Source: Candidatus Moraniibacteriota bacterium | GTDB lineage: Bacteria; Patescibacteriota; Minisyncoccia; Moranbacterales; UBA1568 | DNA: 64,000 bases | Reading direction: 5' to 3' | Assembly: GCA_028688415.1 (NCBI GenBank) | Contig: JAQTYF010000001.1 | Coordinates: 464,627 to 528,626 of the forward strand | Shown here: piece by piece, positions 856 through 53,780 of the stretch | Position numbering within the stretch: the stretch's first letter is position 1 | How the letters are laid out: every line of letters begins with the position of its first letter | Translations under genes and position numbers: made by a program | The notes under the pieces: model-generated | Told to the model about the DNA's origin: nothing | The model's database searches: none | Seen by the model: only the letters and a program-made list of their open reading frames with translations

Positions 856-2797
856 CGAGCTCATTCTTTATTCACCTTTTGGAGGAAAATGCTCTTTTAT
901 CTTTTGTACAAGATCAGGATGATAATGTTCTGCTTCTTTACTTCTCGTTTTCTGTTTTTCGAACCATTCTGGATTTGCAACTCGAAATTGTTCTACAAAT
1001 TTTTTGATAGATATATGACTTGAAGATATTTTACCCTGAAGACTTCTAGCGCTTTCCCATCCCTCCTTCTTTTGTGGAATAGATGTGAAATGTTCCATTA
1101 TTTTCTCCACTAATTCGGGATGATAATGTTCTGCTTCCATATTTCTATTTTTCTGTTTTTCGAACCATTCTGGATGTGCAACTCGAAATTGTTCTACAAA
1201 GATTGCGATAGGTTTATAATCTGAAGATATTTTATCACGAAGACCATTAGCGCTTTCCCATCCCTCCTTCTTTTGTGGAATAGATGTGAAATGTTCCATT
1301 ATTTTCTCCACTAATTCGGGATGATAATGTTCTGCTTCTTTTCCACTTGCTTTCTGTTTTTCGAACCATTCTGGATGTTCAACTCGAAATTGTTCTACAA
1401 AGATTGCGATAGGTTTATAACCTGAAGATGTTCTATTACAAAGACTGCTGGCGCTTTCCCATCCCTCCTTCTTTTGTAGAATAGATGTGAAATGTTCCAT
1501 TATTTTCTCCACTAATTCGGGATGATAATGTTCTGCTTCTTTAGAGTTCGTTTTCTGTTTTTCGAACCATTCTGGATGTTCAACTCGAAATTGTTCTGCA
1601 AATGTTTTGATAACATAGAAATCTGCGATCTTTCTGTTGTGGAAACTCCCCGCGCTTTCCCATCCTTCTTTCTTTTGTGGAACAGATGTGAAATGTTCCA
1701 TTATTTTCTGCACCAAATCAGGATGATAATGTTCTGCTTCTTTGCCTCTCGCTTTCTGTTTTTCGAACCATTCCGGATGCTCAACTCGAAATTGTTCTAC
1801 GAATGCCATGATAGATTTATAATAATCTGAAGATATTTTTCCCCTAAGACCACTGGCACTTTCCCATCCCGCCTTTTTCCGAGGCACCTCAACTCGTGGC
1901 ACAAAATCAGATTGAGGAATATTTACTGTAGTTTGTTTTTCTCCTTCATCTTTACTATTTACCTCTGCAAAAAACTCCTCTGTAAGATAAGCAACCATCT
2001 TCTTCCTCCAAAGAGGACTCTGGATGAGTCGTCTGCCTGCTTCTGGAGTCTCTTTGATCAAATCATTGAATGCATTTTTGTTTCGAACATCAAGTTGTTC
2101 AATCGGAACAGCAAGAACTTCTGTATCAAGGATATATGAAGCATTTCCTTCTTCTTCACAAAGATAGACGACTCTATTCAAAGACTCTATCAAGACTCTG
2201 TAGTAGGGGTGCTGTCGCATCATTTCATCTGTTGTGGTTCCTTCTGTAATACGGATAGATGTTTCTTCTCCTTCTTGTGAAAGAGTGTAACCAAGGTCAT
2301 TTTCGAGTATATAGAGGAGGGTAAGAAGACGTGGTATGAGTTTTTTTCGTTCCACTCCAGCACCTGATCCAGAAATAATGCCGCCTTTTCCTTCTTGAGG
2401 AGGAAGAATGACTGTGTCTCTCATCTCTGTCTGTGAAACAATGAGGTTCCGTAGCTGTGTCATAGTTTGCTCTCTTTCTGAGACAGCCTGAAGGGTTTCT
2501 GTGACATCGGGGATGTTCATTGCTTGTAGAGCTCTGTTTTCCACTTCTGCATCTACAAGAGGAATGACACTCTGTGTTTTTTTGTATTCAGTCACTGCTT
2601 TTTCAATCAATACTACAAGCTCATTTAATGTAGTATCAAAAAATGTCTGGACATTCTCAGGAGAAACTGAAGTGCTCAGTATTTTTTGATAGATTTTTTG
2701 GAGTTCTACTTTCAACTGTTCTTTGGGTGGTTGGAATTCGAATGAGGGCATAACGGATAGAAAGATATTATTAAGTTTATCATAACACAGAAAATCT
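856..2797. mobile_element. Candidate single-gene insertion between duplicated rnhB 3-prime ends
   Basis: Bounded by the direct repeats at 797-855 and 2798-2858. The only cargo is the 651-aa repeat-protein gene. No recombinase inside. Confidence 0.4.
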
Positions 2798-2823
2798 TTA
2801 CCGTTTTTTTGGCTTGAGTACAT
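868..2823 (-). CDS. Hypothetical protein with a roughly 300-aa N-terminal domain and 5-6 C-terminal tandem repeats of about 67 aa (HPEWFEKQK...EAEHYHPELVEKIMEHF...KKEGWESA)
   Basis: 651-aa ORF. DNA periodicity is about 200 bp between 870 and 1900. The first 26 nt overlap rnhB, so the true start may be the internal Met near 2751. Confidence 0.6.
   Translation of the reverse strand: MYSSQKNGKDFLCYDKLNNIFLSVMPSFEFQPPKEQLKVELQKIYQKILSTSVSPENVQTFFDTTLNELVVLIEKAVTEYKKTQSVIPLVDAEVENRALQAMNIPDVTETLQAVSEREQTMTQLRNLIVSQTEMRDTVILPPQEGKGGIISGSGAGVERKKLIPRLLTLLYILENDLGYTLSQEGEETSIRITEGTTTDEMMRQHPYYRVLIESLNRVVYLCEEEGNASYILDTEVLAVPIEQLDVRNKNAFNDLIKETPEAGRRLIQSPLWRKKMVAYLTEEFFAEVNSKDEGEKQTTVNIPQSDFVPRVEVPRKKAGWESASGLRGKISSDYYKSIMAFVEQFRVEHPEWFEKQKARGKEAEHYHPDLVQKIMEHFTSVPQKKEGWESAGSFHNRKIADFYVIKTFAEQFRVEHPEWFEKQKTNSKEAEHYHPELVEKIMEHFTSILQKKEGWESASSLCNRTSSGYKPIAIFVEQFRVEHPEWFEKQKASGKEAEHYHPELVEKIMEHFTSIPQKKEGWESANGLRDKISSDYKPIAIFVEQFRVAHPEWFEKQKNRNMEAEHYHPELVEKIMEHFTSIPQKKEGWESARSLQGKISSSHISIKKFVEQFRVANPEWFEKQKTRSKEAEHYHPDLVQKIKEHFPPKGE
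870..1900. repeat. Intragenic tandem repeats, period about 200-204 bp, about 5.5 units
   Basis: The recurring motif gctttcccatccctccttcttttgtggaatagatgtgaaatgttccattattttct.. appears near 1051, 1251, 1453, 1654 and 1856. Confidence 0.8.
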
Positions 2824-8385: not shown

Positions 8386-9411
8386 ATGAAAAAAATGTAT
8401 GATAAAACTATTGTGATCGTCGGACCGACGGCTTCTGGGAAGTCGGATTTGGCTATTGCTCTGGCAAAAAAATATAATGGCGAAATCATCTCCGCCGATA
8501 GTCGCCAAGTCTACCGTGGAATGGATATCGGAACGGGAAAAGTGATCCGTGACAAAGTCGTGAATCATTCTGAGCTTGTCGAAGGGTCTTCAAAAAAAGA
8601 AGTGTTCTTTTCAGAGGGAATTATTCATCATCTCCTCGATGTGGCCAGTCCTAAGAGGACATACAATGTCACCCACTTCGTCCGTGATACGAAGAAAATT
8701 ATCATTGATATTCGTAACCGAGAAAAGATACCTATTATTTGTGGTGGGACAGGATTCTGGGTGCAATCATTCATCGATGGCACTCTCTTCCCGGTCGTCA
8801 AACCAAACACACTGTTACGGAAAAAACTCAGCAAACTTTCCGCGGAAGAACTCTTTCTCTTACTCCAAAAAAAGGATCCAAGCCGGGCACAAAATATTGA
8901 TGCAAAAAATAAAGTCCGTCTCATTCGCGCTCTCGAAATCTGTGATGCTCTCGGGACAGTCCCTACTCTTCGTTGTCTTCCCCGACTTGATCGGGGATCC
9001 ATGGATTCCCGTCTTCCTGCCCGAATCGCTACGCGAATCGTTGCGGGCGGGCACGGGAATGACACAGTGATTATTGCTCTCTGTCCACCACAAGAAACAC
9101 TTCATAAAAATATCGAGGCTCGTCTCGAAAAAAGACTCGCACAGGGTATGATTGCCGAGATAGAAACACTCCGCGCAAACGGTATCAGCTGGAAGCGACT
9201 TGAAAGTTTTGGACTCGAGTACAAATATGTCGCACTTTTTCTCCAAAAGAAAATCGCCCTAGAAAAAATGAAAGAGCGTCTCAATTTTGAAATCAGACAC
9301 TATGCAAAACGTCAGATCACTTGGCTCAGGCGATGGGAGAAGATGGGTGCCACCATTCACTGGGTCACCAAGCCGAAAGAAGTTACTGAAATTCTTAAAA
9401 AAAACACATAA
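8386..9411 (+). CDS. miaA: tRNA dimethylallyltransferase
   Basis: IVGPTASGKSDLAIALA P-loop and SADSRQVYRGMDIGTGK, which is the MiaA signature. Confidence 0.9.
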   Translation: MKKMYDKTIVIVGPTASGKSDLAIALAKKYNGEIISADSRQVYRGMDIGTGKVIRDKVVNHSELVEGSSKKEVFFSEGIIHHLLDVASPKRTYNVTHFVRDTKKIIIDIRNREKIPIICGGTGFWVQSFIDGTLFPVVKPNTLLRKKLSKLSAEELFLLLQKKDPSRAQNIDAKNKVRLIRALEICDALGTVPTLRCLPRLDRGSMDSRLPARIATRIVAGGHGNDTVIIALCPPQETLHKNIEARLEKRLAQGMIAEIETLRANGISWKRLESFGLEYKYVALFLQKKIALEKMKERLNFEIRHYAKRQITWLRRWEKMGATIHWVTKPKEVTEILKKNT

Positions 9412-9617
9412 AACGTTCAGATACTTTTCTCAAAGTATCACTCACATTTTTTCACAAGAATTTTTCTGGAGGAATTGGAGGGTTTTCGAGCATGGTTCCG
9501 GTCGTTTCGACCGGATCGAAAAAACTCCATTAAGAGAAGTCCGTCGCTGGACGGACGGAATGACCTCCAGGAAGATTGCTTGTGATAGAAATGTATTACT
9601 TACAAATAGAAAAATCA

Positions 9618-9698
9618 AAAAAGTCTAAAAAGTTTTTAGATGATCCTTGTTAAAGCAGTTTTAACAAATGGCTCCCTAAAAAACTTTTTAGACTTTTT
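9618..9698. ncRNA. Structured hairpin element, family copy 1 (22-bp A/T-tract stem, 36-nt loop with an inner hairpin capped by GCAGT)
   Basis: The 5-prime stem aaaaagtctaaaaagtttttag pairs with the 3-prime stem ctaaaaaactttttagacttttt with a 1-nt bulge. The loop is atgatccttgttaaagcagttttaacaaatggctcc. It lies between convergent miaA and gatB and may simply act as a bidirectional terminator. Confidence 0.45.
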
Positions 9699-9712
9699 TC
9701 TTCTTCGGACTA

Positions 9713-9811
9713 CTTCAGTTTCTCTTTTAATACATCTGCTACAACTTTCGGATTGGCCCCGCCCGCAACGATTCGCAAGCGAAGCGTAGCGATTCGGGCA
9801 GGCTTTCCCCT
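9713..9811. pseudogene. Decayed, GC-rich duplicate of the gatB 3-prime end
   Basis: Minus-strand translation gives RGKPARIATLRLRIVAGGANPKVVADVLKEKLK-stop, compared with the real GatB C-terminus ..QVMSATKGKANPKIVQELLKKKLS-stop. Nucleotide similarity is about 70 percent over about 60 nt. Confidence 0.55.
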
Positions 9812-9850
9812 TTATTTTCTTTCCACCAGAGGTGGATCGGAAATTATCAG

Positions 9851-11332
9851 CTAGCTGAGTTTCTTCTTCAATAATTCCTGTACGATTTTCGGATTGGCCT
9901 TCCCTTTCGTAGCCGACATCACCTGCCCGATGAGAAACTGGAAAGCATTCTGCTTGCCGGCGCGATAATCAGCCACTGATTTTTCGTTGGCAGAAAGTAC
10001 TGACGAGACAATCGTCTCCAATTCTGAAGTATCGCTCATCTGAGACAGATTCAATCGTTCGATAATATGCGATGGATCATTATCTCCTCCTTTGTACATT
10101 TCCGCAAGTACTGTCTGAGCAGCACTGGAGTTTATTTTTCCTTCGGCGACAATGCCAATGAATTCTGCGTAGTTTTCTGGCGTAATTTTGATATTCGTAA
10201 TATCTTCTCCGTGCTCTGTAAAATATTTTCGTAACTCAGTGAGGACATAATTGGAAGCGAGTTTCATCGCGCGCTCAAATGGCACGGTGACTTCTCGAGA
10301 CTTGACCTTCTCAGCAAGTTCACTCGCTACTGCTTCAAAATAATTTGCGAGATGATGATCGTCTGTCAGTGTCACTACATCCGCGAGAGGGAGACCATAT
10401 TCCGTCACAAACCGATGAAGCTTCGCATCAGGCAATTCGGGCAGTGTCGCACGCAACTTCTCTACGTATTCTGAATCAAATTCAAACGGAGGAATATCTG
10501 GTTCCGGGAAATATCGATAGTCATGAGCAGATTCTTTCTTCCGCTGAGAAACAGTGAGATTTTTTGCCTCGTCCCATCCTCTGGTTTCCTGTACGAGTTT
10601 TTCTCCTGCCTCAAGCACGCTCGTCTGTCTTACAATCTCATATTCGATAGCACGTTCGACAGAACGAAATGAATTGATATTTTTCACTTCTACTTTGGTA
10701 CCAGACAATCGATCCGCTCCATCGGGATAAAGTGAGATATTCACCTCACAACGCATCTGACCCTTTTCCATATCAGCATCTGATACATCGAGATAGCGAA
10801 GTGTCTGACGGAGTTTCTGACAGAATAATCGCACATCTTTCCCTGTCGAAAAATCAGCTTCGGTGACAAGCTCCATAAGTGGTACACCAGCACGGTTAAA
10901 ATCCACCAATGTGAAATGTTCTCCCGTTGGATGCATCGACTTTCCTGTATCTTCTTCGAGATGGATACGAGTAATACGAAATGATTTCTTGGTCTCACCA
11001 TCTTCTATTTCCATCACTCCGTGTTCACAAAACGGTTCATCGTACTGAGAAATTTGATACCCCTTTGGAATATCTGGATAGAAGTAATTCTTTCGATCAA
11101 ATTTGGAATTGAGACGAAGTGTACAGCTCAAAGCGAGACCGACGCGCTGGACCGCTTCTATCGCTTTGCGATTCGGCACAGGAAGAGTTCCTGGTTGAGC
11201 AGTACAGACAGGACAAATATTGACATTTGGTACCGTCTCCACGCCGAGTCCATTTTTGCACGCACAAAACATCTTGGAAGCTGTTTTCAGCTCTGCATGA
11301 ATTTCCATTCCTATCGTAACGTTGTATTTCAT
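9851..11332 (-). CDS. gatB: Asp/Glu-tRNA amidotransferase subunit B
   Basis: MKYNVTIGMEIHAELKTASKMFC.. N-terminus with a full-length GatB/GatE fold. The ORF extends to 11350; the likely start is MKYNV. Confidence 0.9.
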   Translation of the reverse strand: MKYNVTIGMEIHAELKTASKMFCACKNGLGVETVPNVNICPVCTAQPGTLPVPNRKAIEAVQRVGLALSCTLRLNSKFDRKNYFYPDIPKGYQISQYDEPFCEHGVMEIEDGETKKSFRITRIHLEEDTGKSMHPTGEHFTLVDFNRAGVPLMELVTEADFSTGKDVRLFCQKLRQTLRYLDVSDADMEKGQMRCEVNISLYPDGADRLSGTKVEVKNINSFRSVERAIEYEIVRQTSVLEAGEKLVQETRGWDEAKNLTVSQRKKESAHDYRYFPEPDIPPFEFDSEYVEKLRATLPELPDAKLHRFVTEYGLPLADVVTLTDDHHLANYFEAVASELAEKVKSREVTVPFERAMKLASNYVLTELRKYFTEHGEDITNIKITPENYAEFIGIVAEGKINSSAAQTVLAEMYKGGDNDPSHIIERLNLSQMSDTSELETIVSSVLSANEKSVADYRAGKQNAFQFLIGQVMSATKGKANPKIVQELLKKKLS

Positions 11333-11433
11333 AAAGATATTGAGAAACACTCTTCAATTAAACAAATTCTTACACATCAATTCTAACACCATCTGCATAT
11401 TCTCTCAATCTCTCATCTTTCTCTACGAACACT

Positions 11434-11988
11434 CTACATCTCCAGTTTTTTCACCATTTCATCCACCTGTGCATAGAGTTCTTCGAGCGTTCCATCATTA
11501 TTGATGACGAAATCAGCACGTTCTTTCAAGGCACGAATCTGCGTTTCTGATTCGAGCAATGCATCTTTCTCAAATTGTGCTTCTGTCTTGATGGTGTCAT
11601 CAGTATTCTGATGTCTCTGAATCAATCGTTTGTATCGTGCTTCAGGAGAAGTCTCCACATAGACAAAATAGAAATGTTCTTCATTTTCCAAATGGATGAT
11701 ATCTGGTGATCGACGTATACCATCGACAACAACGAGTTTGTTTTCACTTTTTTCTGCCTCTGCCAATATCACCCGAGAAAATATATCCTCTCCAAAAGCT
11801 TTTCGAAGATGGAGAGAAAGTTTTGCCATATTCTCTCGATTTTGCTCCAGATACAATCGATCGAGCATATCTCGGAGTGGTTGCGAAAAACGAAGCGAGG
11901 ATGCCTGATATTTCTCTACCATATATTTTCCTACTGTATCTTTGCCGGATGCTATTTCTCCTGAAATACCCAAAATAATTTTCTGCAT
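11434..11988 (-). CDS. P-loop deoxynucleoside monophosphate kinase-like protein
   Basis: KIILGISGEIASGKDTVGKYM resembles the N-terminus of T4 dNMP kinase and CoaE. It sits in the thymidylate gene cluster. Confidence 0.5.
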   Translation of the reverse strand: MQKIILGISGEIASGKDTVGKYMVEKYQASSLRFSQPLRDMLDRLYLEQNRENMAKLSLHLRKAFGEDIFSRVILAEAEKSENKLVVVDGIRRSPDIIHLENEEHFYFVYVETSPEARYKRLIQRHQNTDDTIKTEAQFEKDALLESETQIRALKERADFVINNDGTLEELYAQVDEMVKKLEM

Positions 11989-12008
11989 ACAACTCTTTTT
12001 CTTATAAA

Positions 12009-12497
12009 TTAATTCCTCTCTCGCACAACAAATGAAAATGTATATTGACCATTATTCTGTTTTTCTTCACTCACTACTTTTGTAAAGTCGCTATAATCAG
12101 GGAAAAATGTATCAGCATCATGAACACCCACTACTTCTGTCACATACAAACGGTCAACAATGGGCAAAAATTGTTTATAGATACTCGCCCCACCGATAAT
12201 AAAAATTTCTTCTGATTCGTGCTCTTTGGCAACACTCAAAGCCTCATCAATAGAACGAACTACGAAACATCCTTCGGGCGCAAACTCTGGTGTCAACGAG
12301 AGAATGATATTCGTACGATTTGGAAGCGGTCGTCCGATAGAATGATAGGTATTTTCCCCCATCACTACGGTATGACTGGTCGTCAATTCTTTGAAGTGTT
12401 TCAGATCTTCTGGGATGTGCCACAAAAGCTGGTTATCTTTTCCGATAGCCCGCTTTTCATCTACTGCAACGATAATACTCAGCCTAGGCTTTGTCAT
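12009..12497 (-). CDS. folA: Dihydrofolate reductase
   Basis: IVAVDEKRAIGKDNQLLWHIPEDLKHFKELT...VVMGENTYHSIGRPLPNR. Confidence 0.9.
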   Translation of the reverse strand: MTKPRLSIIVAVDEKRAIGKDNQLLWHIPEDLKHFKELTTSHTVVMGENTYHSIGRPLPNRTNIILSLTPEFAPEGCFVVRSIDEALSVAKEHESEEIFIIGGASIYKQFLPIVDRLYVTEVVGVHDADTFFPDYSDFTKVVSEEKQNNGQYTFSFVVRERN

Positions 12498-12558
12498 AGA
12501 ATGCTTTTATTTCTTATAGTCACAAAAAATGGAACGAATAATATTAAAAACTTTTTAT

Positions 12559-12639
12559 ATTCAGGAGCAAGAATTTTTAGATAAACCCGTCCGAAGCAGT
12601 TTCGCCCAATGGTTTTCTAAAAAATTCTTGCTCCTGAAT
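12559..12639. ncRNA. Structured hairpin element, family copy 2
   Basis: Stem attcaggagcaagaatttttag pairs with ctaaaaaattcttgctcctgaat, with the same 1-nt T-run asymmetry as copy 1. The 36-nt loop is ataaacccgtccgaagcagtttcgcccaatggtttt. It lies between thyA and folA. Confidence 0.45.
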
Positions 12640-12723
12640 TCTCTCCTTACTGTAAATACTTTTTTTATTTTTAAGTATTCTCCTTCAAAAATTATAGTTT
12701 ACAATGACTGGACGTTGTAAATA

Positions 12724-13740
12724 TTATTTCACTTTCTTCTCAAACCCACCGATATTCGCAATTTCTCCTCGAATAGCAGGATGTGGATCATAGCCTTCGA
12801 TGATGATGTCTTCAAACACGAAATCATCGATATTTTTTCTTTCTGGATTGAGTGTCAATTTCGGGAATGGTCGCGGTTCACGAGTGAGCTGCTCTTTCAC
12901 CTGGTCGAAATGATTGCTATAGATGTGTGCATCACCAAAAAAGTGTACAAATTCCCCTGGTTTGAATCCTGTCACCTGTGCCACCATATGGAGCAACAAC
13001 GCATAACTCGCAATGTTGAACGGTACGCCGAGGAAAGTATCTGCACTTCGTTGGTAGAGTCCGAGATTGAGCGTATCATTCCCTGTTACCTGAAATTGGA
13101 ATGTTGTATGACAAAATGGTGGGACCTCATTCTCATTACCTGCTGACGCCATTGCATAGATGAAATCCGGATTCCATGCAGAAATAACATAGGATTTGCG
13201 AAACGGTTTGTCTTTCAGTCCATCGATAACCCAACCGAGTTGATCGATTTCTCTCCCGTCACTCGCTGGCCAACGTCGCCACATTCGTCCATAAATAGTG
13301 ATGAGATCACCCCATTCTCGCACAAAAGCATCATCTTCCGGAAGCGATTTCAATTTTTCAATAAACTCTTTCTGTTCCATCTGAGGAAGTCCTGTAGCAA
13401 GAGCTTGTTTGTTATACCGTTTCCATGCCCACTCGTCCCAGATATGAACATCGTTGTCGACGAGGTATTTAATATTCGAATCCCCCTTGAGAAACCAGAG
13501 GAGTTCATGAATGATACCCCGATGAAAGACCTTCTTGGTCGTGAGAAGAGGAAATCCGTCAGCCATATCATATCGCATCGAGTACCCAAAAACAGAACGG
13601 ATAGAAGGCGGTGTCACTCCTCGCTCTTTGTATTGCGCCAAAATTTCTTTCGTGAAGAATACTTCTTTGTCCGATCCTTTTTCGAGAATCGTTTTCACCA
13701 TATCGAGATATTGATATTCAGGATGTCGTTTTGTTTCCAT
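12724..13740 (-). CDS. thyA: Thymidylate synthase (long form)
   Basis: [29 protein letters not shown] and the remaining ThyA core motifs. Confidence 0.9.
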
Positions 13741-24622: not shown

Positions 24623-25006
24623 TTAACAAGCATTTGTGTATGTGATGCCTGTATTGGTAATATGCGTCAATCCACAAGCCGTATTCACGGCCGATACAAC
24701 TGGAGAAACGGTAACATCAAAAACACCACTACCACTCACGCCACAATCAGCTGTAGAACCACCTGTGACTATGACCCCTACGGTATGATTCGAAGTTACT
24801 GGAAGATTAGCGGCTGTTAAAACAGCGGTATCACATGCAATAGTTAATCCAGGAATAGCTCCTGATACTTCTGATTTGAAAGATGCTACTTGAGCTTTGA
24901 CACGAGCTCCAGACAAACTCACCAACACAACTGAGGCGAGAATACCAATGATGGCAATAACGATGAGGAGTTCGATAAGGGTAAAACCCTTCAATACTTT
25001 TTTCAT
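24623..25006 (-). CDS. Type IV pilin (PilA-like), paralog 1
   Basis: [24 protein letters not shown]-terminus; 127 aa; C-terminal Cys pair. Confidence 0.8.
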
Positions 25007-25033
25007 ACAATTACTTTTATTTTTTAGATATAC

Positions 25034-25414
25034 TTATGGACAATTGGTAAAATCAGGACCACTTCCTGTGGTGTTGACATTGATATCTGCGCCTGTGCAA
25101 CCGGTAAGAGTAGCAAAAGGAGCGATACCTGTAATCGTAATTTGTCCATCGCCTGTAGGCCCACAATCGTTGAGATCAATTGAGGCTCCTGCCCAGTTTG
25201 TTGTAGCAGTATCAGCAGGTAGAGCAATCAATGCATCATCACAAGCAGAAATAAAACCAGGAACAGCTCCAGTCACTTCTGATTTGAAAGATGCCTTCTG
25301 AGCCTTTGCTCTTGCTCCAGACAAGCTCACCAACACAACTGAGGCGAGAATACCAATGATGGCAATAACGATGAGGAGTTCGATAAGGGTAAAACCCTTC
25401 TTTATATTTTTCAT
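25034..25414 (-). CDS. Type IV pilin (PilA-like), paralog 2
   Basis: Same N-terminal 36 aa as paralog 1, with a divergent C-terminal globular domain. Confidence 0.8.
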   Translation of the reverse strand: MKNIKKGFTLIELLIVIAIIGILASVVLVSLSGARAKAQKASFKSEVTGAVPGFISACDDALIALPADTATTNWAGASIDLNDCGPTGDGQITITGIAPFATLTGCTGADINVNTTGSGPDFTNCP

Positions 25415-25546
25415 ATTCTCACCTCCTTTCTTTTTATGTTTTTATTTTTTGTGTGAAATTTTTCATTCATACACTTGTTTTCAGTATACATTTTTTCGGA
25501 AATATTGTAAACCCACACACCAATCATATTTCAATTTTGTCAACCC

Positions 25547-35524: not shown

Positions 35525-35559
35525 AAAAAAGTTACGTAATGAATTACGTAACTTTTTTT
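35525..35559. terminator. Bidirectional intrinsic terminator
   Basis: aaaaaagttacgtaat-gaa-ttacgtaactttttt: a perfect 13-bp stem flanked by A6 and T7. Confidence 0.7.
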
Positions 35560-44100: not shown

Positions 44101-44205
44101 TAGATTCTGTTCTTACTTTCACAGTCAGTATATAAACTTCTCACAAAACGGTCAAAGAAAAGGAAAAAAACCTCTTTGTAGAGATTTTTTCAGATTCGGG
44201 AATTC

Positions 44206-46869: not shown

Positions 46870-47745
46870 TTATTTTTGCTCTAAAAACTTTCTCAATTCC
46901 TCCTGTCTTTCCTTAAATCCACCAAATTCTCTTTGAAAGTCGGTCTTTTTGTAAAGCTGATATACAAATCCCTTCTCCGTCAAAATTACTCGCGAGTCGC
47001 CATCATTGGAGTTTTCTATTTCTGAATCAAACAACCTTTTTTCTACGTTTTTCTTTTTTGCAAACAACCCCTTAAAAACTTCCCTGCTCATATCAGAAAC
47101 AAACTTATCAAGACCGTTGGCCAAAGCGTTACTTTTCTCAGTGATCTTTTCTTCTAAAGACAGGAGATCCTTCCTCTCATCTTCTATGATGGCTTCATCC
47201 TTCATCAGACTAAGCATAGAATAGCTGCTTAGCTTTCTCTGATATTCCAACAAATCTTCAGCGAAGATTATCTCAAGATCAAAGAGAAACTTCGACTCCC
47301 TATCTATCTTTTCAGAAAACAACGCTTTCCAAAATTGGAAAAATTCGTAGAATATTTGAAAATCAGCCTGAAGATTACTTACTTTTTTACTAAGTTCCTT
47401 GCTATTTCGCTGGAGAGTTTCCGTAGGATAATCATCTGTATTTTTCGGATTACTTTTCTCAAGGAAAAAAGAATTCGTTACAAAAGGACTCAGAGCATAA
47501 AAAGACTTATGTAGTCCATCGACGAGCAAATTTGTTATTTTTTCATGGACATCTAGTTTTTTCTTAAAAGAAATTTCTCTCGTCAAAATAAAATACGTAA
47601 CAAAAAAACCAAATATCAATACAAATGATTGAAACAAAGATGAAAACGCATCCCAATTAAAAGAACTTTCGCTGTTTGAAAAAATCAAGCCGGAAAACAC
47701 GGCTTGAAGTATAAGAATTAATACGAGTAGGATTTTCTCAAACAT
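46870..47745 (-). CDS. Hypothetical membrane-anchored coiled-coil protein
   Basis: Two N-terminal TM segments and a long predicted coiled coil. Confidence 0.4.
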   Translation of the reverse strand: MFEKILLVLILILQAVFSGLIFSNSESSFNWDAFSSLFQSFVLIFGFFVTYFILTREISFKKKLDVHEKITNLLVDGLHKSFYALSPFVTNSFFLEKSNPKNTDDYPTETLQRNSKELSKKVSNLQADFQIFYEFFQFWKALFSEKIDRESKFLFDLEIIFAEDLLEYQRKLSSYSMLSLMKDEAIIEDERKDLLSLEEKITEKSNALANGLDKFVSDMSREVFKGLFAKKKNVEKRLFDSEIENSNDGDSRVILTEKGFVYQLYKKTDFQREFGGFKERQEELRKFLEQK

Positions 47746-47964
47746 ATCGTATTAGTAGGTTACGCATATTTATTATATTGCGTAAGTTCCTTTTTCGAAA
47801 TCTTCCAAATAACTTTCAACTTCTTGAGGAAGTTTTGCAAAAATAGATCAAAGATCAGTCGAGAGCCGTCCTCGGCCAGATTATTATTTCTTCAGAAGCT
47901 TTCTGCATTTTCACACAAATTTATTGGACATATTTATAAAAATACAGCGCTATTACAAAACTTA

Positions 47965-48618
47965 TCATTCTTTAACAACCATCCATTTTTTCTTTTCATC
48001 GCCATACATCACAAAATATATCATCCGCTGTATAACGCCAAAATAGATTGGAAATAGGATGAACCAACTAAAAAATGACACTACCCAACCTACAATCGTA
48101 ATCAGCCTATGCGAAATATGATCATGTCTCACCTGCGGATAAATTAATCTCCACGCCATAAGAATAAATTCCTTAAATCCAATTTTATCCATTGACTCTC
48201 TATTTTTTGCTTTTTGTATTAAAATAATTAGCCGTACAATATCAAAAAATATTCCAAAAAAAACAAAAGTGATAACTACACCCCATATGGGGAAAAAATA
48301 TAAAAATGGCACCCCCACAATAATCCATAAAATTGCAACTCCAAAAAACAAAGATATCAAATTACTATCAAATTTGAATTCTTGAGCATCAAGCGTTGCA
48401 AGTTTTTTAACATTTCTTATTATCCAGTAGCCAATAGAGCTCAATGATAATCCAGCAAAAATAACCCAGATTAAAATATCAGTGAATTTTGAATCTCCTT
48501 TTAAAACAATAAAATAAAAAGCAAGCGAGAGAATAATAATTCCAATGCCTACTATCAATGCTGAGCTTGCAATAAAATGCATACGTGAATACATTTTTTG
48601 AATTCTTTCATTGATCAT
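47965..48618 (-). CDS. Hypothetical polytopic membrane protein
   Basis: Hydrophobic profile only. Confidence 0.4.
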   Translation of the reverse strand: MINERIQKMYSRMHFIASSALIVGIGIIILSLAFYFIVLKGDSKFTDILIWVIFAGLSLSSIGYWIIRNVKKLATLDAQEFKFDSNLISLFFGVAILWIIVGVPFLYFFPIWGVVITFVFFGIFFDIVRLIILIQKAKNRESMDKIGFKEFILMAWRLIYPQVRHDHISHRLITIVGWVVSFFSWFILFPIYFGVIQRMIYFVMYGDEKKKWMVVKE

Positions 48619-48651
48619 ATGTTAAAAAATTTTAATAATTATTAATTGTTA

Positions 48652-49764
48652 CTATTTTTTGCACTGTTTCTGATAATATGGGATTGATTTTACAAAATTC
48701 AATGCTTTTTCATCTATAAGATCTCCCTCATTTTTTGCTATGACCAGTAGAGTTTGAAACAATTGCGCAACTTCCTGAGTTTTTGTCATTCTCGATTGTA
48801 AAGATTTTTCTTCCTCATCATTTAATACATGGTAAACAAACCTTCCCTCTGAAATAAATGCGCTCGCTTCTGCCCTATAACATCCATCTTCAGAATTAAC
48901 ATCTTCATTATTAGCATACTGAAAAACATGAGTTAATTCATGACGCAATAAAACTGCAGTCAATAAATCATCTTTTATGCTGTATTTAGGAGAAACTTTT
49001 ATCAAATATTCATCTAGTGAATGCATAGGAGAAAAAACAAAAACTCCTTCTGCACCATTAATTTCCTTGCTAGATTCTGAATATTCAATTTTGAGACAAT
49101 TTTTGATGCTTTCTAAGCGACCTGACTCCTCGATATTCCCGCGATTTCTGTATCTCTGTTCAATAAGACTTAGCGACCGCTTAAACTCTTCTGACATTTC
49201 ATATCCACTTTCTCTAATACAATAAATAGGTGTTTCATTAAAAACAATCAGCCATTCGTTGTTAATTTTGATAAATTTTCTATATATTCTTTTTGGGTAA
49301 TCCTTATCAGCTAAGTTAAAAATGCTTGTTTCATCAACATGTCCTATATCATTTTTTATAATCACCTTATTTACTTCTACGGTTTTTCCTTTCTTTAAAT
49401 CATTTAAAAATATTTTAGATCTTTCATCTTCTGGATTTTGTTGTGCATACTCAATTAGTCGTTGCAATACTGATTCCTGCGAATATATAGCACCTCGTTT
49501 TTCGATATATTTTTCTCTACTTATTTTATGCTTAGACTCTGGCGATAAATAAGAATCATATATTTTTCCAAAATCATTATTGCTTTCCAATTCAAATATT
49601 TCATTGAATCTTTTGACAAGCTTATCTTCATCACTGATGCTTATTGATTGCTCCTGTTTGTTTTTTAAAAAAGAAAAATTTTCTAATTCATAAAGTTTAA
49701 TATAAACGCCTAAAGCCACTATCAACACTACACTTATTAGGATAACTATCAATTTTTTATTCAT
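48652..49764 (-). CDS. Putative zinc metallopeptidase (HExxH) with an N-terminal TM anchor
   Basis: LRHELTHVFQY motif. Co-oriented with and adjacent to the XRE HTH gene, an ImmR/ImmA-like arrangement. Confidence 0.45.
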   Translation of the reverse strand: MNKKLIVILISVVLIVALGVYIKLYELENFSFLKNKQEQSISISDEDKLVKRFNEIFELESNNDFGKIYDSYLSPESKHKISREKYIEKRGAIYSQESVLQRLIEYAQQNPEDERSKIFLNDLKKGKTVEVNKVIIKNDIGHVDETSIFNLADKDYPKRIYRKFIKINNEWLIVFNETPIYCIRESGYEMSEEFKRSLSLIEQRYRNRGNIEESGRLESIKNCLKIEYSESSKEINGAEGVFVFSPMHSLDEYLIKVSPKYSIKDDLLTAVLLRHELTHVFQYANNEDVNSEDGCYRAEASAFISEGRFVYHVLNDEEEKSLQSRMTKTQEVAQLFQTLLVIAKNEGDLIDEKALNFVKSIPYYQKQCKK

Positions 49765-49773
49765 AAATTTATT

Positions 49774-49971
49774 TTATTTGATTAACTCATCAACACTAAC
49801 CTCAAGCGCTTTAGAAATCTTCTTGAGCGTATCAAGTGTTGGATTTTGGTTTTTACCAACTTCAATCTTGATGATTGTGTTATTGGCAACATCAGCCAAT
49901 CGTGCCAGTTTTTCTTGTGATAATCCCTTGGCTTCTCGTAACTTCCTCAGATTTTTTGTTATATTTGACAT
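49774..49971 (-). CDS. XRE-family HTH transcriptional regulator
   Basis: LREAKGLSQEKLARLADVANNTIIKIEVGK, a classic Cro/C1 HTH; 65 aa. Confidence 0.75.
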   Translation of the reverse strand: MSNITKNLRKLREAKGLSQEKLARLADVANNTIIKIEVGKNQNPTLDTLKKISKALEVSVDELIK

Positions 49972-50107
49972 ACTTATATTATAGTAGTAGAATTATAGTG
50001 TTAGTACTATTTCTTTTCTATTACTTTGATGCTACACCAAAATTTCAGACAAATCAAACTAAATGACTTTTTATGTTATTAGTAAAAATCTATTCCGATC
50101 GTAAATC

Positions 50108-50330
50108 AGCAGCCGTTCCCCGCCGCACTGCTCCAAAGAGCAGTCCTCATCAGAAAAGCTTTCTTTTCCTTAAGAGAAGAAAAGATCCGGCGCGCGCAAA
50201 TCCGAAATGCAAAGAAAGGTTTTTCTGATGGGGAGTCCCGAGGCTTCAGGACTACGGTGGGGACGGCTTCCGCTTTCTTACTCAGGGTTTTTGGCGAAAT
50301 ACATTCGAACTTCGTCCAATATGCACCGCA
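50108..50330. repeat. Right arm of the 222-bp inverted repeat
   Basis: Reverse complement of 44279-44500. Confidence 0.9.
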
Positions 50331-50447
50331 AAAATTCGGAATTCAAAACTGGAGAAGAAATAGCGTCGACGCGTAGCGCCGTCTGTTCTGCATTCCCCCC
50401 ACGAAATCCCCAATCTGAAAGGATTCGCCACGCGGAGCGGGGCTCCT
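50328..50447. repeat. 116-120 bp unit, inverted relative to the copy at 51853-51968
   Basis: About 95 percent identity to the reverse complement of 51853-51968. It is contiguous with the right inverted-repeat arm, so 50108-50447 forms one roughly 340-bp unit. Confidence 0.85.
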
Positions 50448-50466
50448 CGTTTGCCAATGCAATCTT

Positions 50467-52005
50467 ATGAATCACACCAGAAAGTTCTTTATCTATACAC
50501 GAAAGAGTACCGATACGGAAGATCGGCAGGTCAGAAGCATTTCGGATCAACTGGCCGAACTCAAAGAATTGGCGGTAAAAGAAAATATCGAGGTTGTTGA
50601 TGTCTTTGTGGAAAAACAGACCGCCAAAGTCCCCGGCCGACCAGTCTTTAATGAAATGCTTCTACGTATCGAAGCAAATGAAGCGAGCGGGATTTTATCG
50701 TGGCATCCCGATCGTTTGGCTCGAAACTCCGTAGATGGTGGCAAGATCATCTATTTGCTCGATACGGGAAAAATAACCGAACTGAAATTTCCAACGTTCT
50801 GGTGTGATCCGACACCGCAAGGAAAGTTCATGCTCTCCATCGCTTTTTCCCAATCCAAGTATTACGTGGACAATTTGAGTGAAAATATCAAGCGTGGGCA
50901 CCGCAACAAAGTGAAGGATGGTATCTGGCCTCAAATGGCTCCTCTGGGGTATGTAAACGTCAAAGGAAGAGGTATTGCGCCACATCCAGAGCTTGCGCCC
51001 CTCATATGCAAGGCATTTGAGGCCTACGCCACAGGCAACTTCACTTTGCGTCAGATTCGCGAAAAGTTTAACGCGCTTGGATTGAAAGGAAAAAGTACAG
51101 AGCTTTCAGTGTCGAACTATCAGACGATTCTCCATAACCCTATCTACTGCGGATTGATCCGCTACAATGGCGAAATCTACGAAGGTAAGTACGAGCCGAT
51201 TATCCCAAAGAAACTTTTTGATCTCTGTCAGGAAGTGATGACAAGAAAGAGCAAGCCGAAAGGCAAAGGTTTGAAAACATATTTGTATCGAGGATTTTTC
51301 CGTTGCGGAGAATGCGGGTGTTTCATTACAACCGAAACACAAAAAGGTCATAACTATTTGCGATGTACGAAACGGAAAAATCCTTGTTTGCAAAAATATG
51401 TCCGTGAAGAACTCATCACTTCTCAAATTAAAGAAGAAATCAAAAAAGTTTCTTTGCCACTCGATTGGGCAAATTGGATGATTGTCGAAAATGAAAAAGA
51501 CCGACAATCAGAAAATCAACCAAGCGAGCTTTTTGCTCAAAAAACCAAAGATGAAATTTCTCTTTTGGATTCTAAAATTGAGAAGCTGATGACTGCGTAT
51601 TTAGAGAGTGTGCTTTCATTGGAAGAATATCGAACAATGAAAAGCAAGCTGGTCAATCAAAAACAGCTTCTCAAAGAGAAATTGGCTGCTTTTGAGCAAA
51701 AAGCGAATAATCGGTTCGAACTCACTAACAAGTTTCTAAAACTCAATCTGGAAGCCAAGGAATTGGCAAACGAGCGAACAGACGAAGAAAATCTTCATCT
51801 GTTCAAAAAGATCGGTTCGAACTTTATTTTGGAAGCTCGAACCATATCTTTTGAGCCCCGCTCCGCGTGGCGCATCCTCTCAGATCGGGGATTTCGTGGG
51901 GGGAACGCAGAACAGACGGCGCTACGCGTCGACGCTATTTCTTCTCCAATTTTGAATTCCGAATTTTTGCGGAGAGGGAGGGATTCGAACCCTCGAGAGT
52001 TGTAA
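50467..52005 (+). CDS. Large serine recombinase (resolvase catalytic domain, recombinase domain, zinc ribbon, coiled coil)
   Basis: YTRKSTDTEDRQ (catalytic Ser), DRLARN, recombinase domain, CGECGC...C..C zinc ribbon. The ORF reads through the repeat at 51853-51968 and into the tRNA, so the true 3-prime end is uncertain. Confidence 0.85.
   Translation: MNHTRKFFIYTRKSTDTEDRQVRSISDQLAELKELAVKENIEVVDVFVEKQTAKVPGRPVFNEMLLRIEANEASGILSWHPDRLARNSVDGGKIIYLLDTGKITELKFPTFWCDPTPQGKFMLSIAFSQSKYYVDNLSENIKRGHRNKVKDGIWPQMAPLGYVNVKGRGIAPHPELAPLICKAFEAYATGNFTLRQIREKFNALGLKGKSTELSVSNYQTILHNPIYCGLIRYNGEIYEGKYEPIIPKKLFDLCQEVMTRKSKPKGKGLKTYLYRGFFRCGECGCFITTETQKGHNYLRCTKRKNPCLQKYVREELITSQIKEEIKKVSLPLDWANWMIVENEKDRQSENQPSELFAQKTKDEISLLDSKIEKLMTAYLESVLSLEEYRTMKSKLVNQKQLLKEKLAAFEQKANNRFELTNKFLKLNLEAKELANERTDEENLHLFKKIGSNFILEARTISFEPRSAWRILSDRGFRGGNAEQTALRVDAISSPILNSEFLRRGRDSNPREL
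51853..51968. repeat. 116-bp unit immediately 3-prime of tRNA-Ser(GCU)
   Basis: Inverted copy of 50328-50447. Confidence 0.85.
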
Positions 52006-52056
52006 CACTCTACCACGTTAGCAGTGTGGGGCCTTCAGCCGCTCGGCCACCTCTCC
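51970..52056 (-). tRNA. tRNA-Ser (anticodon GCU), long variable arm
   Basis: Reverse complement reads GGAGAGGTGGCCGAGCGGCTGAAGGC..CTGCTAA..GAGGGTTCGAATCCCTCCCTCTCC, with the same layout as E. coli tRNA-Ser(GCU). Confidence 0.8.
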
Positions 52057-52069
52057 TTTTTTGCTTTAT

Positions 52070-53098
52070 CTAAGCCATTTTATATCTTTCCAAGTGTTTC
52101 GGATTATGTGTCCCGACGACCTGAAAATACTTTTCGACATCCTTCCTCGCTTCTATACGTATATCCCAACCATTTTTCATTATGCGGTGTTTGATACCTA
52201 AAATCAAGAGGATCTCACTCGCTGACTGGAGAAGCGGATGTGATCGACTGGTAAAACCAATCTTTTTGTAACAATATCTCTTCCCTTTTGAGAGGTACTT
52301 ATGCAGTATAATACAACCATCAGTATCAATCAAGCCACGCAGGCAAGCAATGGAATAGCACTGATTTTTCTTTACCCATAACGGAATGTCGACTTGTTGC
52401 TTTACTTTGTTCCCCTGCTTCAATCCTAGTTCATCAATAAGATACGTGATGAGAGCAGTTCGTGAGACCATAATACGTTCAGCAAGAAATTTCTTATTCA
52501 GACAAACCCCAAAAGAAACCTCAAAAAGATTGTTGATTAATTGCTGAACAAATATTGAGTACTTTTTATCGGTTAGAGTGTTGAGGGTAATTGTAAATTG
52601 ATGTTTACTTATTCCTCCGTCTCCGAGCATTATTCCGACAAACTCAGCGAGGTCTTCTGACGGTGTCGGTCTCTTGAAAGGAAGTGCTTGAGTAATTTTT
52701 GATGGGTTGAGATGTCCTTCTTTTTCCCACCATTCTCGCCACTTCGTTTTGCGATATTCGGGGTCACCTCCTACGATGCCGTATTTCTTCAGAACTGCTT
52801 TTCCTCCAGCTGATGAACCTTGCTTGGTATACCAATAAGCATCTTTGATAACAATGTTTTCCGGCATTTCTCTTTTTCTTTTCTTGCAAATCTGCTCGAC
52901 AGCAAAAAGTGACATCGAAATTTTTTCATTCCTCCAATCATTGAGATTGCGCACGCTCGTCCCAGCGACTTCCGCTAATTTTTCCCACGTACCAAAAAAT
53001 TCTTCTTTCGATTGCAAAAGAAACTCTTTTTGTTTTCCTTTTGGAAATATAACTCTTTTAGAATTCAACTGTTCAGCCATATCTCCATAATAGCACAA
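52070..53098 (-). CDS. Free-standing double-motif LAGLIDADG endonuclease-like protein with an N-terminal HTH-like extension
   Basis: Motif 1 EFVGIMLGDGGIS and motif 2 LRGLIDTDGCII, spaced about 100 aa apart as in single-chain LAGLIDADG enzymes. Confidence 0.6.
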   Translation of the reverse strand: MCYYGDMAEQLNSKRVIFPKGKQKEFLLQSKEEFFGTWEKLAEVAGTSVRNLNDWRNEKISMSLFAVEQICKKRKREMPENIVIKDAYWYTKQGSSAGGKAVLKKYGIVGGDPEYRKTKWREWWEKEGHLNPSKITQALPFKRPTPSEDLAEFVGIMLGDGGISKHQFTITLNTLTDKKYSIFVQQLINNLFEVSFGVCLNKKFLAERIMVSRTALITYLIDELGLKQGNKVKQQVDIPLWVKKNQCYSIACLRGLIDTDGCIILHKYLSKGKRYCYKKIGFTSRSHPLLQSASEILLILGIKHRIMKNGWDIRIEARKDVEKYFQVVGTHNPKHLERYKMA

Positions 53099-53163
53099 AA
53101 CGTATGTATTCCAAAAAAAATTGTTTTCTCTGCTATACTAAAGAGAACCAATATGTACCACCT

Positions 53164-53766
53164 ATGAAAACACGATGTCAGTGGGTGCCGGAGGGAGATG
53201 CACTCTATGAAAAATATCACGATGAAGAATGGGGTGTCCGCACGTATGATGATCGGAGACTATTCGAGTTTCTCGTGCTCGAGAGTGCGCAGGCCGGTCT
53301 CTCGTGGGCGACGATTCTCAAAAGACGATCAGGATACAAGAAAGCCTTCGTCAATTTTGATCCGAAGAAAGTGGCAAAGTTCACTCGTCGTGATATCGAG
53401 AGACTCTCGAAAGATGCTTCTATCATCAGACATCGCCTCAAAATAGAATCAGCGGTGAGCAATGCGAGACTCTTCCTCGAAGTACAGAAGGAATATGGAT
53501 CGTTCGCCAACTATCTCGCTCAGTTCCTGAACCCTTATCAAGACAAGAAAAAGAAACGCTCTTTCGCAGATGTTCCTCTCTTCACAGAGGAAGCAGAAAT
53601 GCTTGCCAAAGATTTGAAGAAACGTGGGTTCAAATTCTTTGGTCCGCTCATCGGTTATGCATATATGCAGGCGATCGGTATGGTGAACGATCACACGACT
53701 GACTGCTTCCGATACAACGAAATCGAAAAAGAGAAGGATTTACTTAGCGGTCCAACCGCTAAGTAA
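53164..53766 (+). CDS. tag: DNA-3-methyladenine glycosylase I
   Basis: CQWVPEGDALYEKYHDEEWGVRTYDDRRLFEFLVLESAQAGLSW. The ORF spans 53104-53766; the start is taken at MKTRCQW. Confidence 0.85.
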   Translation: MKTRCQWVPEGDALYEKYHDEEWGVRTYDDRRLFEFLVLESAQAGLSWATILKRRSGYKKAFVNFDPKKVAKFTRRDIERLSKDASIIRHRLKIESAVSNARLFLEVQKEYGSFANYLAQFLNPYQDKKKKRSFADVPLFTEEAEMLAKDLKKRGFKFFGPLIGYAYMQAIGMVNDHTTDCFRYNEIEKEKDLLSGPTAK

Positions 53767-53780
53767 ATAAAAGGAAATAA

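Follow-up and report, generated by a model that had tools for sequence, protein, structure and literature searches.

REP, BIME and REPIN sequences of proteobacteria are short, imperfect intergenic palindromes that occur in both orientations between convergent or co-transcribed genes, and their hairpins terminate or stabilize mRNA. They are mobilized by RAYT, a Y1 HUH transposase, and this enzyme recognizes the REP hairpin with its asymmetric bulges. In the REP and IS200/IS605 systems, the Y1 transposase recognizes a folded single strand. Integron attC sites are also recognized as folded single-stranded hairpins, in which the structure and the extrahelical bases are conserved and the stem sequence is variable. 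IS1397 and ISKpn1 insert in PU loops, so that a mobile sequence lands at or in a pre-existing extragenic palindrome. CPR bacteria have tiny genomes, and to our knowledge descriptions of mobile elements in them are few. IS110-family targeting of REPs is mentioned in PMC11208160. Among the MITEs, Chunjie sits within an operon without disrupting it (review PMC10969869).

Here we describe a palindromic repeat of Candidatus Moranbacteria, two copies of which lie in a 64,000-nt stretch of contig JAQTYF010000001.1 (GCA_028688415.1), hereafter the window. The repeat resembles REP and REPIN sequences in being a dispersed, intergenic, imperfect palindrome present in both orientations (eight loci). However, REPs have a conserved stem and a GT(A/G)G head, whereas in the Moranbacteria repeat the apex is conserved, the arms are unique to each locus and the core begins with TTTTTAGAT. 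It also differs from REPs in its few copies and in having no GTAG head. No RAYT or Y1 HUH transposase gene is found among the window ORFs (Pfam) or the Pfam labels of the fetched loci. Like MITEs, the repeat is small, non-coding, intergenic and interspersed, and forms stable hairpins that can mimic terminators (PMC10969869); the position of copy 2 between thyA and folA resembles that of Chunjie within its operon. MITEs usually span 100-400 bp, have target-site duplications and a parent IS, and end in conserved inverted repeats of 10 bp or more; in contrast, the Moranbacteria repeat has a ~51-bp core and 7-bp terminal repeats, and no parent element was found. Its invariant ends, TTTTTAG/CTAAAAA, cover 7 bp only and the adjacent AAAAG/CTTTT is partly conserved, which falls short of the ~10-bp repeats expected of a MITE. 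IS1397/ISKpn1 and IS110 are autonomous, transposase-encoding elements of 1.2-1.5 kb, whereas the Moranbacteria repeat encodes nothing. In attC sites the conserved part is located at the base of the hairpin, and here it is located at the apex; an attC identity was rejected, as the alignment shows no RYYYAAC/GTTRRRY boxes and no tyrosine recombinase lies nearby. With bidirectional intrinsic terminators the repeat shares an A-tract, a long stem and a T-tract at gene ends, but the usual 3-8-nt loop is replaced by a conserved 36-nt structured interior.

Results

Two copies of a nested hairpin

The window copies and the genes that flank them are listed by position.

8386-9411, + strand: miaA, flanking copy 1
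9617-9699, + strand: copy 1 (A-type), whole nested hairpin (sequence read, folds, covariance-model scores)
9617-9632, + strand: copy 1 left arm, AAAAAAGTCTAAAAAG, 16 nt, pairing perfectly with 9684-9699
9633-9683, + strand: copy 1 conserved core (alignments, pair counts, DNA fold)
9633-9639, + strand: copy 1 TTTTTAG
9640-9675, + strand: copy 1 interior, 36 nt
9676-9683, + strand: copy 1 CTAAAAAA
9684-9699, + strand: copy 1 right arm, CTTTTTAGACTTTTTT
9851-11350, - strand: gatB, flanking copy 1
12009-12497, - strand: folA, flanking copy 2
12559-12639, + strand: copy 2 (B1-type), whole nested hairpin (sequence read, folds, covariance-model scores)
12559-12573, + strand: copy 2 left arm, ATTCAGGAGCAAGAA, 15 nt
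12574-12624, + strand: copy 2 conserved core (alignments)
12574-12580, + strand: copy 2 TTTTTAG
12581-12616, + strand: copy 2 interior, 36 nt
12617-12624, + strand: copy 2 CTAAAAAA
12625-12639, + strand: copy 2 right arm, TTCTTGCTCCTGAAT
12724-13740, - strand: thyA, flanking copy 2

In both copies a ~51-nt conserved core forms the centre of a perfect palindrome with locus-unique arms of 15-16 nt. The core of copy 1 reads, in order, TTTTTAG, AT, GATCC, TTGTTAAA, GCAGT, TTTAACAA, AT, GGCTC, C and CTAAAAAA. The first-pass annotation had ascribed to the two loci one architecture, with runs of five and six T that leave a 1-nt bulge, and a base-for-base reading agrees: T5 faces A6 in copies 1 and 2, which results in one extra A. 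It had also noted that the GCAGT pentaloop is kept between the copies and that the inner stem differs, as the sequence confirms (pentaloop at 9655-9659 and 12596-12600; stem TTGTTAAA/TTTAACAA in copy 1 versus CGAA/TTCG in copy 2). The 36-nt loop that it described is exact in length in both copies; the segment is, however, a two-helix rod with conserved bulges rather than a loop. A degenerate 50-nt pattern shared by the copies matches the window twice, once at each copy, with 0.00 matches expected (100 shuffles). No arm of either copy occurs a third time in the window, which indicates that the arms were not copied from nearby sequence.

Copy 1 lies between the convergent genes miaA (+) and gatB (-), as had been stated, with a conserved structured RNA and miaA on one side and the gatB 3´ region on the other. 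Copy 2 occupies the 226-nt thyA-folA spacer and is antisense to both neighbours, since thyA and folA are both on the - strand. The two copies enclose housekeeping genes that are syntenic, a further difference from integron attC sites. The best protein matches of the window and all the related loci belong to Candidatus Moranbacteria/Moraniibacteriota (CPR), the best ThyA match being 89% identical, and by Pfam the window encodes the usual housekeeping genes of CPR bacteria plus type IV pilus genes.

Other features of the window

The structured RNA beside copy 1 is a Y-shaped candidate of ~130 nt at window 9455-9588 (+), which also occurs at L009:4528-4662 (-) and L045:4985-5122 (-). It has a 20-bp closing stem and two hairpins, and 11 of 48 predicted pairs covary among the three sequences. 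The L045 sequence is 87% identical and lies in another gene context, upstream of a glycosyltransferase; the candidate has no Rfam match, even at E<10. Copy 1, ~30 nt downstream, may act as its terminator.

The gatB 3´ end is present twice, at 9710-9758 and 9851-9899, 141 bp apart and 73% identical. The downstream duplicate is a detached pseudo-end that encodes ...ANPKVVADVLKEKLK* and resembles the relative L009; the duplication is a rearrangement scar adjoining copy 1. Another small palindromic repeat, rich in G+C (CCGCCCGCAACGATTCGC..(2 or 11 nt)..AGCGATTCGGGCAGG), occurs at 9016-9055 (-, within the miaA frame) and at 9759-9803 (+, between the two gatB ends), and is absent from all fetched loci.

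Elsewhere, a low-GC stretch at 47000-53100 (30% at 48-50 kb) contains unannotated ORFs. The sole recombinase of the window, a large serine recombinase at 50467-52005 (+), overlaps with its end a tRNA at 51970-52056 (-), and a LAGLIDADG-domain protein follows at 52070-53098; the stretch, the only mobile island of the window, is probably a mobile element integrated at the tRNA. Four to five tandem 201-bp repeats, 79-86% identical, occupy 887-1789 within ORF 868-2823 (-), which encodes a 651-aa protein with 67-aa repeats and no real Pfam domain. A 208-nt direct repeat (24830-25037 and 25238-25445; 81% identical, 408 bp apart) adjoins the type IV pilus cluster and probably represents duplicated small pilin-like genes.

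A family of eight loci in Moranbacteria

The core pattern takes the form TTTTAGAT-N26-36-ATGGNTNNCTAAAA with paired arms. Species-representative genomes and JGI metagenomes were scanned with a loose pattern, and the true matches in both are confined to Moranbacteria. A covariance model built from four copies (R1) scores copy 1 at 100.8 bits and copy 2 at 104.3 bits. R1 finds no third copy in the window, where its weak matches are plain A-tract/stem/T-tract palindromic terminators, and reveals a diverged second Crystal Geyser copy at L006:12763-12854 (CG-b), together with two copies in L049 and one in L053 within orthologous regions fetched via helicase and TopA homologs. A refined model of eight core sequences (R2) scores copies 1 and 2 at 86.6 bits each, and, used to search for more diverged copies, it adds none from the window or from 267 kb of Moranbacteria loci. 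The two strands are well separated by R2 (about 86 versus 24-31 bits), which makes the orientation calls reliable. The family thus comprises eight distinct loci in five Moranbacteria genomes: the window, L003 (genome JBAQEZ01), the Crystal Geyser (CG) lineage (L004/L006/L007/L051/L052), L049 (GCA_028699965.1) and L053 (GCA_037441965.1). The first-pass annotation had proposed a scan of related genomes as the check that could refute it: copies do occur elsewhere, but the nearest relatives lack the element in their orthologous spacers.

Neither copy matches Rfam 15 at the gathering threshold, which returns three tRNAs only in the window; ranking by E-value gives generic long-hairpin noise at both loci (e.g. 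Plastid-psbA-2, 36 bits against a threshold of 55.8). No description of the repeat family was found in the literature searched; the family is undescribed so far, and small intergenic palindromic repeats are already known as a kind. A phage or plasmid origin was rejected, as two patterns give no true copies in IMG/VR, no phage record matches and plasmids give a 24-nt chance match. The core ends GTTTTTAGA...AATGGYTCC.AAAAC resemble type II CRISPR repeats; an orphan CRISPR repeat or tracr-like RNA was rejected, with no array and no cas domains in the window. An SRP RNA domain and group II intron domain 5 were also rejected because their helix and bulge geometry misfits (judged by eye against the consensus).

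The copies fall into the following subtypes.

Subtype A: GATGATCC...ATGGCTCC, 8-bp inner helix; copy 1, CG-b and L053
Subtype B1: T5...GGTTTTC...A6; copy 2 and L049b
Subtype B2: T4...GGTTTCC...A5; CG-a and L049a
Intermediate subtype: between A and B; L003

The interior of B-type copies reads GATAAACCCGTCCGAAGCAGTTTCGCCCAATGGTTT(T/C)C. About 30% of the interior positions distinguish subtype A from subtype B, which disfavours a single essential binding site. Within a subtype, the copy 2 core is identical at 51/51 positions to the L049b core (L049:3335-3397, dprA-topA spacer), and the CG-a and L049a B2 cores are identical at 49/49 positions; one subtype is thus sequence-identical between genomes with coding DNA more than 20% diverged.

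Fold and covariation of the core

The core folds into TTTTTAG/CTAAAAA(A), an AT/C internal loop, a 5-bp helix (GATCC/GGCTC or AAACC/GGTTT), an AT bulge, a 4-8-bp helix and a G-N-N-R-T pentaloop. The first-pass annotation had named fold prediction as a check, and both loci lie well below shuffles as RNA and as DNA: 96-nt stretches of both copies reach z scores of -5.9 to -7.9 as RNA (both strands) and of -7.3 to -9.1 as single-stranded DNA. The RNA stability of the whole element is -29 to -39 kcal/mol, and the copy 1 core alone is a DNA hairpin of -8.4 kcal/mol.

In the eight-copy alignment, 89% of the cells are paired and 20 of 35 pairs show double changes, which is matched in 0 of 500 shuffles; a one-column shift of the partners collapses the pairing signal. 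Covariation of the arms could simply stem from unrelated palindromes, but the inner-helix pairs 31-63 (AU in four copies, GC in three, GU in one), 37-55 (GC, CG or UA), 40-52 and 41-51 (AU in four copies, GC in four), which are internal to the core, covary too. Even among A-type copies the inner helix is TTGTTAAA/TTTAACAA in copy 1 versus GCATCAAA/TTTGATGC in the second Crystal Geyser copy. TTTTAG, AT, CC...GG, the AT bulge, CTAAAA and the extra A are invariant across all eight copies. The core-internal covariation and the invariant positions indicate long-term constraint on the fold of the core as a single strand, and the proposal of a selected structure, made from two copies, now extends to compensatory changes in the inner helices and arms at six further loci.

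These properties would suit a functional structured RNA, that is, a protein-binding or RNase III-released module in 3´ UTRs or intergenic transcripts, the arms of which provide a stem for termination or processing. In favour of such an RNA are the covarying inner helices, the conservation of the loop and of the junction nucleotides, and the high stability of the RNA folds; a perfect stem of 22-30 bp is also an ideal RNase III substrate. All the copies are also intergenic, most of them directly after a gene on the same strand, and copy 1, ~30 nt past a conserved structured RNA, could terminate it. G-U versus A-C mismatches, however, show no consistent bias that would indicate a preference for either strand, no conserved promoter accompanies the copies, as their flanks are unrelated, and the element is missing from the nearest relatives. 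Together with the orientation data given below, these points make a functional RNA an unlikely, if still credible, explanation.

Relation to host terminators

Long near-perfect A-tract/T-tract palindromes occur as plain terminators at window 35525-35558, 44165-44190 and 53738-53768 and at L004:3245-3282, and are likely bidirectional. The left arm of copy 1 has the A6-stem-T6 design of the plain terminator at 35525-35558, and its AAAAAAGT...ACTTTTTT is comparable to AAAAAAGTTACGTAAT-ga-ATTACGTAACTTTTTT of that terminator. The inner arm ends carry a loose AAAAG/CTTTT motif that has no counterpart in plain terminators. The 36-nt 'loop' explains why a terminator consensus scan of 9300-12900 calls neither copy. 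Runs of T6 or longer are present on both strands of copy 1; along the thyA-folA sense strand, the sequence after copy 2 is AUAUAAAAAG.

The copies could accordingly be taken for ordinary intrinsic terminators that are alike by chance or local duplication, since copy 1 and several others have A-tracts and U-tracts flanking the stem and the weak model matches in the window are plain terminators. We give this explanation very little credence: identical 49-51-nt cores recur in different genomes at unrelated sites, the chance expectation of the shared pattern is 0.00, and copy 2 lacks a U-tract on the sense strand. The cross-genome identity of the cores thus upholds the earlier view that the element is not a chance terminator.

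Turnover and inversion at orthologous sites

All eight copies are intergenic, at unrelated sites: miaA/gatB, thyA/folA, NUDIX/ABC-F, queH/PIF1-helicase and dprA/topA. Flank similarity is found at orthologous sites only, so shared flanks give no indication of a larger mobile unit. Filled and empty spacers between related genomes are found at thyA-folA, queH-helicase and dprA-topA, the pattern of an insertion polymorphism. The thyA-folA gap is 1-14 nt in L009, L010-L017 and L018-L025, which indicates that the 226-nt spacer of copy 2 is derived. Copy 1 is absent from the miaA-gatB spacer of L009, and no copy is present in 85 kb of sequence from the relatives L009, L010-L017 and L018-L025.

In the queH-helicase spacer, the CG and L049 cores have opposite orientations relative to flanks that are 75-78% identical, and their arms are unrelated. 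L056, the closest relative of L049 (TopA 93%), has a copy at neither queH-helicase nor dprA-topA; only 10 nt separate its queH stop from a conserved block upstream of the helicase. The queH-helicase spacer is also empty in L045-L048 and L053. The dprA-topA spacer contains an A-type core in sense orientation in CG, an A-type core in antisense orientation with decayed arms in L053 (86-88% identical to CG-b, about as the flanks), and a B1 core in 23-nt perfect arms in L049, and is empty in L054, L056, L057 and L058. At L053:5285-5510, the assembly GCA_037441965.1 contains an N run, and the 5´ half of the element is present both before and after it as a duplicate; assembly seems to have failed here because of the palindromic repeat.

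Relative to flanking transcription, four copies are sense, three are antisense (copy 2, L049a and L053) and one is convergent. The two CG copies are opposite within 3 kb, so the orientation does not follow the direction of replication either. Of the seven copies with an informative orientation, three thus run antisense to both neighbouring genes. This mixture, and the inversion of the core at orthologous sites, are more in keeping with a mobile-type element acting at the DNA level than with a conserved RNA gene. The suggestion of a selected RNA or DNA structure therefore holds for the structure, and its RNA half is disfavoured.

Orientation independence would also be expected of a host DNA-level site, a hairpin or cruciform bound in either orientation by a recombination, replication, uptake or nucleoid protein. 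Combined with strict asymmetric features (the extra A and the AT bulge), it fits the recognition of folded ssDNA, and two of the sites adjoin the DNA-processing genes dprA/topA and PIF1 helicase. Such a site should not, however, be patchy among close relatives, as it is in L056, which shares 93% TopA identity with L049 and is without copies, or be so low in copy number, and we consider it improbable.

Discussion

The family is real: its fold is kept by compensatory change, and its copies have been gained, lost, inverted or swapped in intergenic spacers. The conserved fold, the indifference to transcription, the intergenic turnover and the cross-genome identity make a selfish or gene-converting DNA repeat the best explanation: a palindromic element of the REP/MITE/SPRITE kind, mobile or gene-converting, with hairpins that resemble terminators. 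We hold this reading to be about as likely as not. At the DNA level, the core would spread by transposition, with an enzyme recognizing its single-stranded hairpin, or by conversion from active copies. The asymmetric features flip with the core and must therefore serve something intrinsic to the element; as no Y1-type enzyme was found here, recognition of the folded core by an enzyme is what we infer. The arms resemble host bidirectional terminators, so the simplest origin of the copies would be insertion at the centre of terminator palindromes. No matching empty palindrome and no clean filled and empty pair with the same arms was found. Direct repeats are unreadable at the junctions because the flanks are inverted repeats and A/T runs.

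For the host, each copy would be a very stable intergenic hairpin and, where U-tracts are present, a bidirectional terminator or 3´-end protector. Copy 1, with U-tracts on both strands between convergent units, probably terminates both. Copy 2, without a U-tract on the thyA-folA sense strand, is probably a tolerated non-terminating hairpin between the cistrons.

A different origin of the arms is conceivable, in which the core is a minimal mobile hairpin whose ends self-prime or meet a hairpin-specific enzyme, so that insertion creates its own perfect inverted duplication of the flank through fold-back or rolling-hairpin-like synthesis. We give this only a slim chance. Arms made at insertion would explain why they are unique and perfect (up to 23 nt in L049b) and why decayed arms accompany diverged cores. 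The lack of a third copy of any arm nearby, and the AAAAG/CTTTT motif of the inner arm ends that plain terminators do not have, are compatible with fold-back synthesis of the arms.

Against the mobile or gene-converting reading, no transposase, recombinase or longer element sharing the ends of the core was found, whether beside a copy or elsewhere in the roughly 330 kb scanned. In about 390 kb, core 5´ ends and genuine core 3´ ends all belong to complete ~51-nt cores; one other match to the 3´ pattern, at window 21216 (-), lacks a 5´ partner, and the covariance models do not identify it as a copy. There are also eight loci only, and the core covariation and the identity of the B-type cores could reflect strong selection for a host function. 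The recurrence at the same two spacers could result from vertical inheritance plus loss.

A ~50-nt repeat that is identical across diverged genomes, can split the tightly coupled thyA-folA operon, and recurs, flips or swaps subtype at the same spacers suggests an active DNA-level process, and an enzyme, that are undescribed in the phylum of Moranbacteria. The nested design, with a conserved apex and locus-unique arms, is the reverse of that of REP elements, and arms generated by the element itself would, if true, represent a new insertion mechanism. The strong hairpins of the element break assemblies, and in annotation they could be mistaken for RNA genes or terminators.
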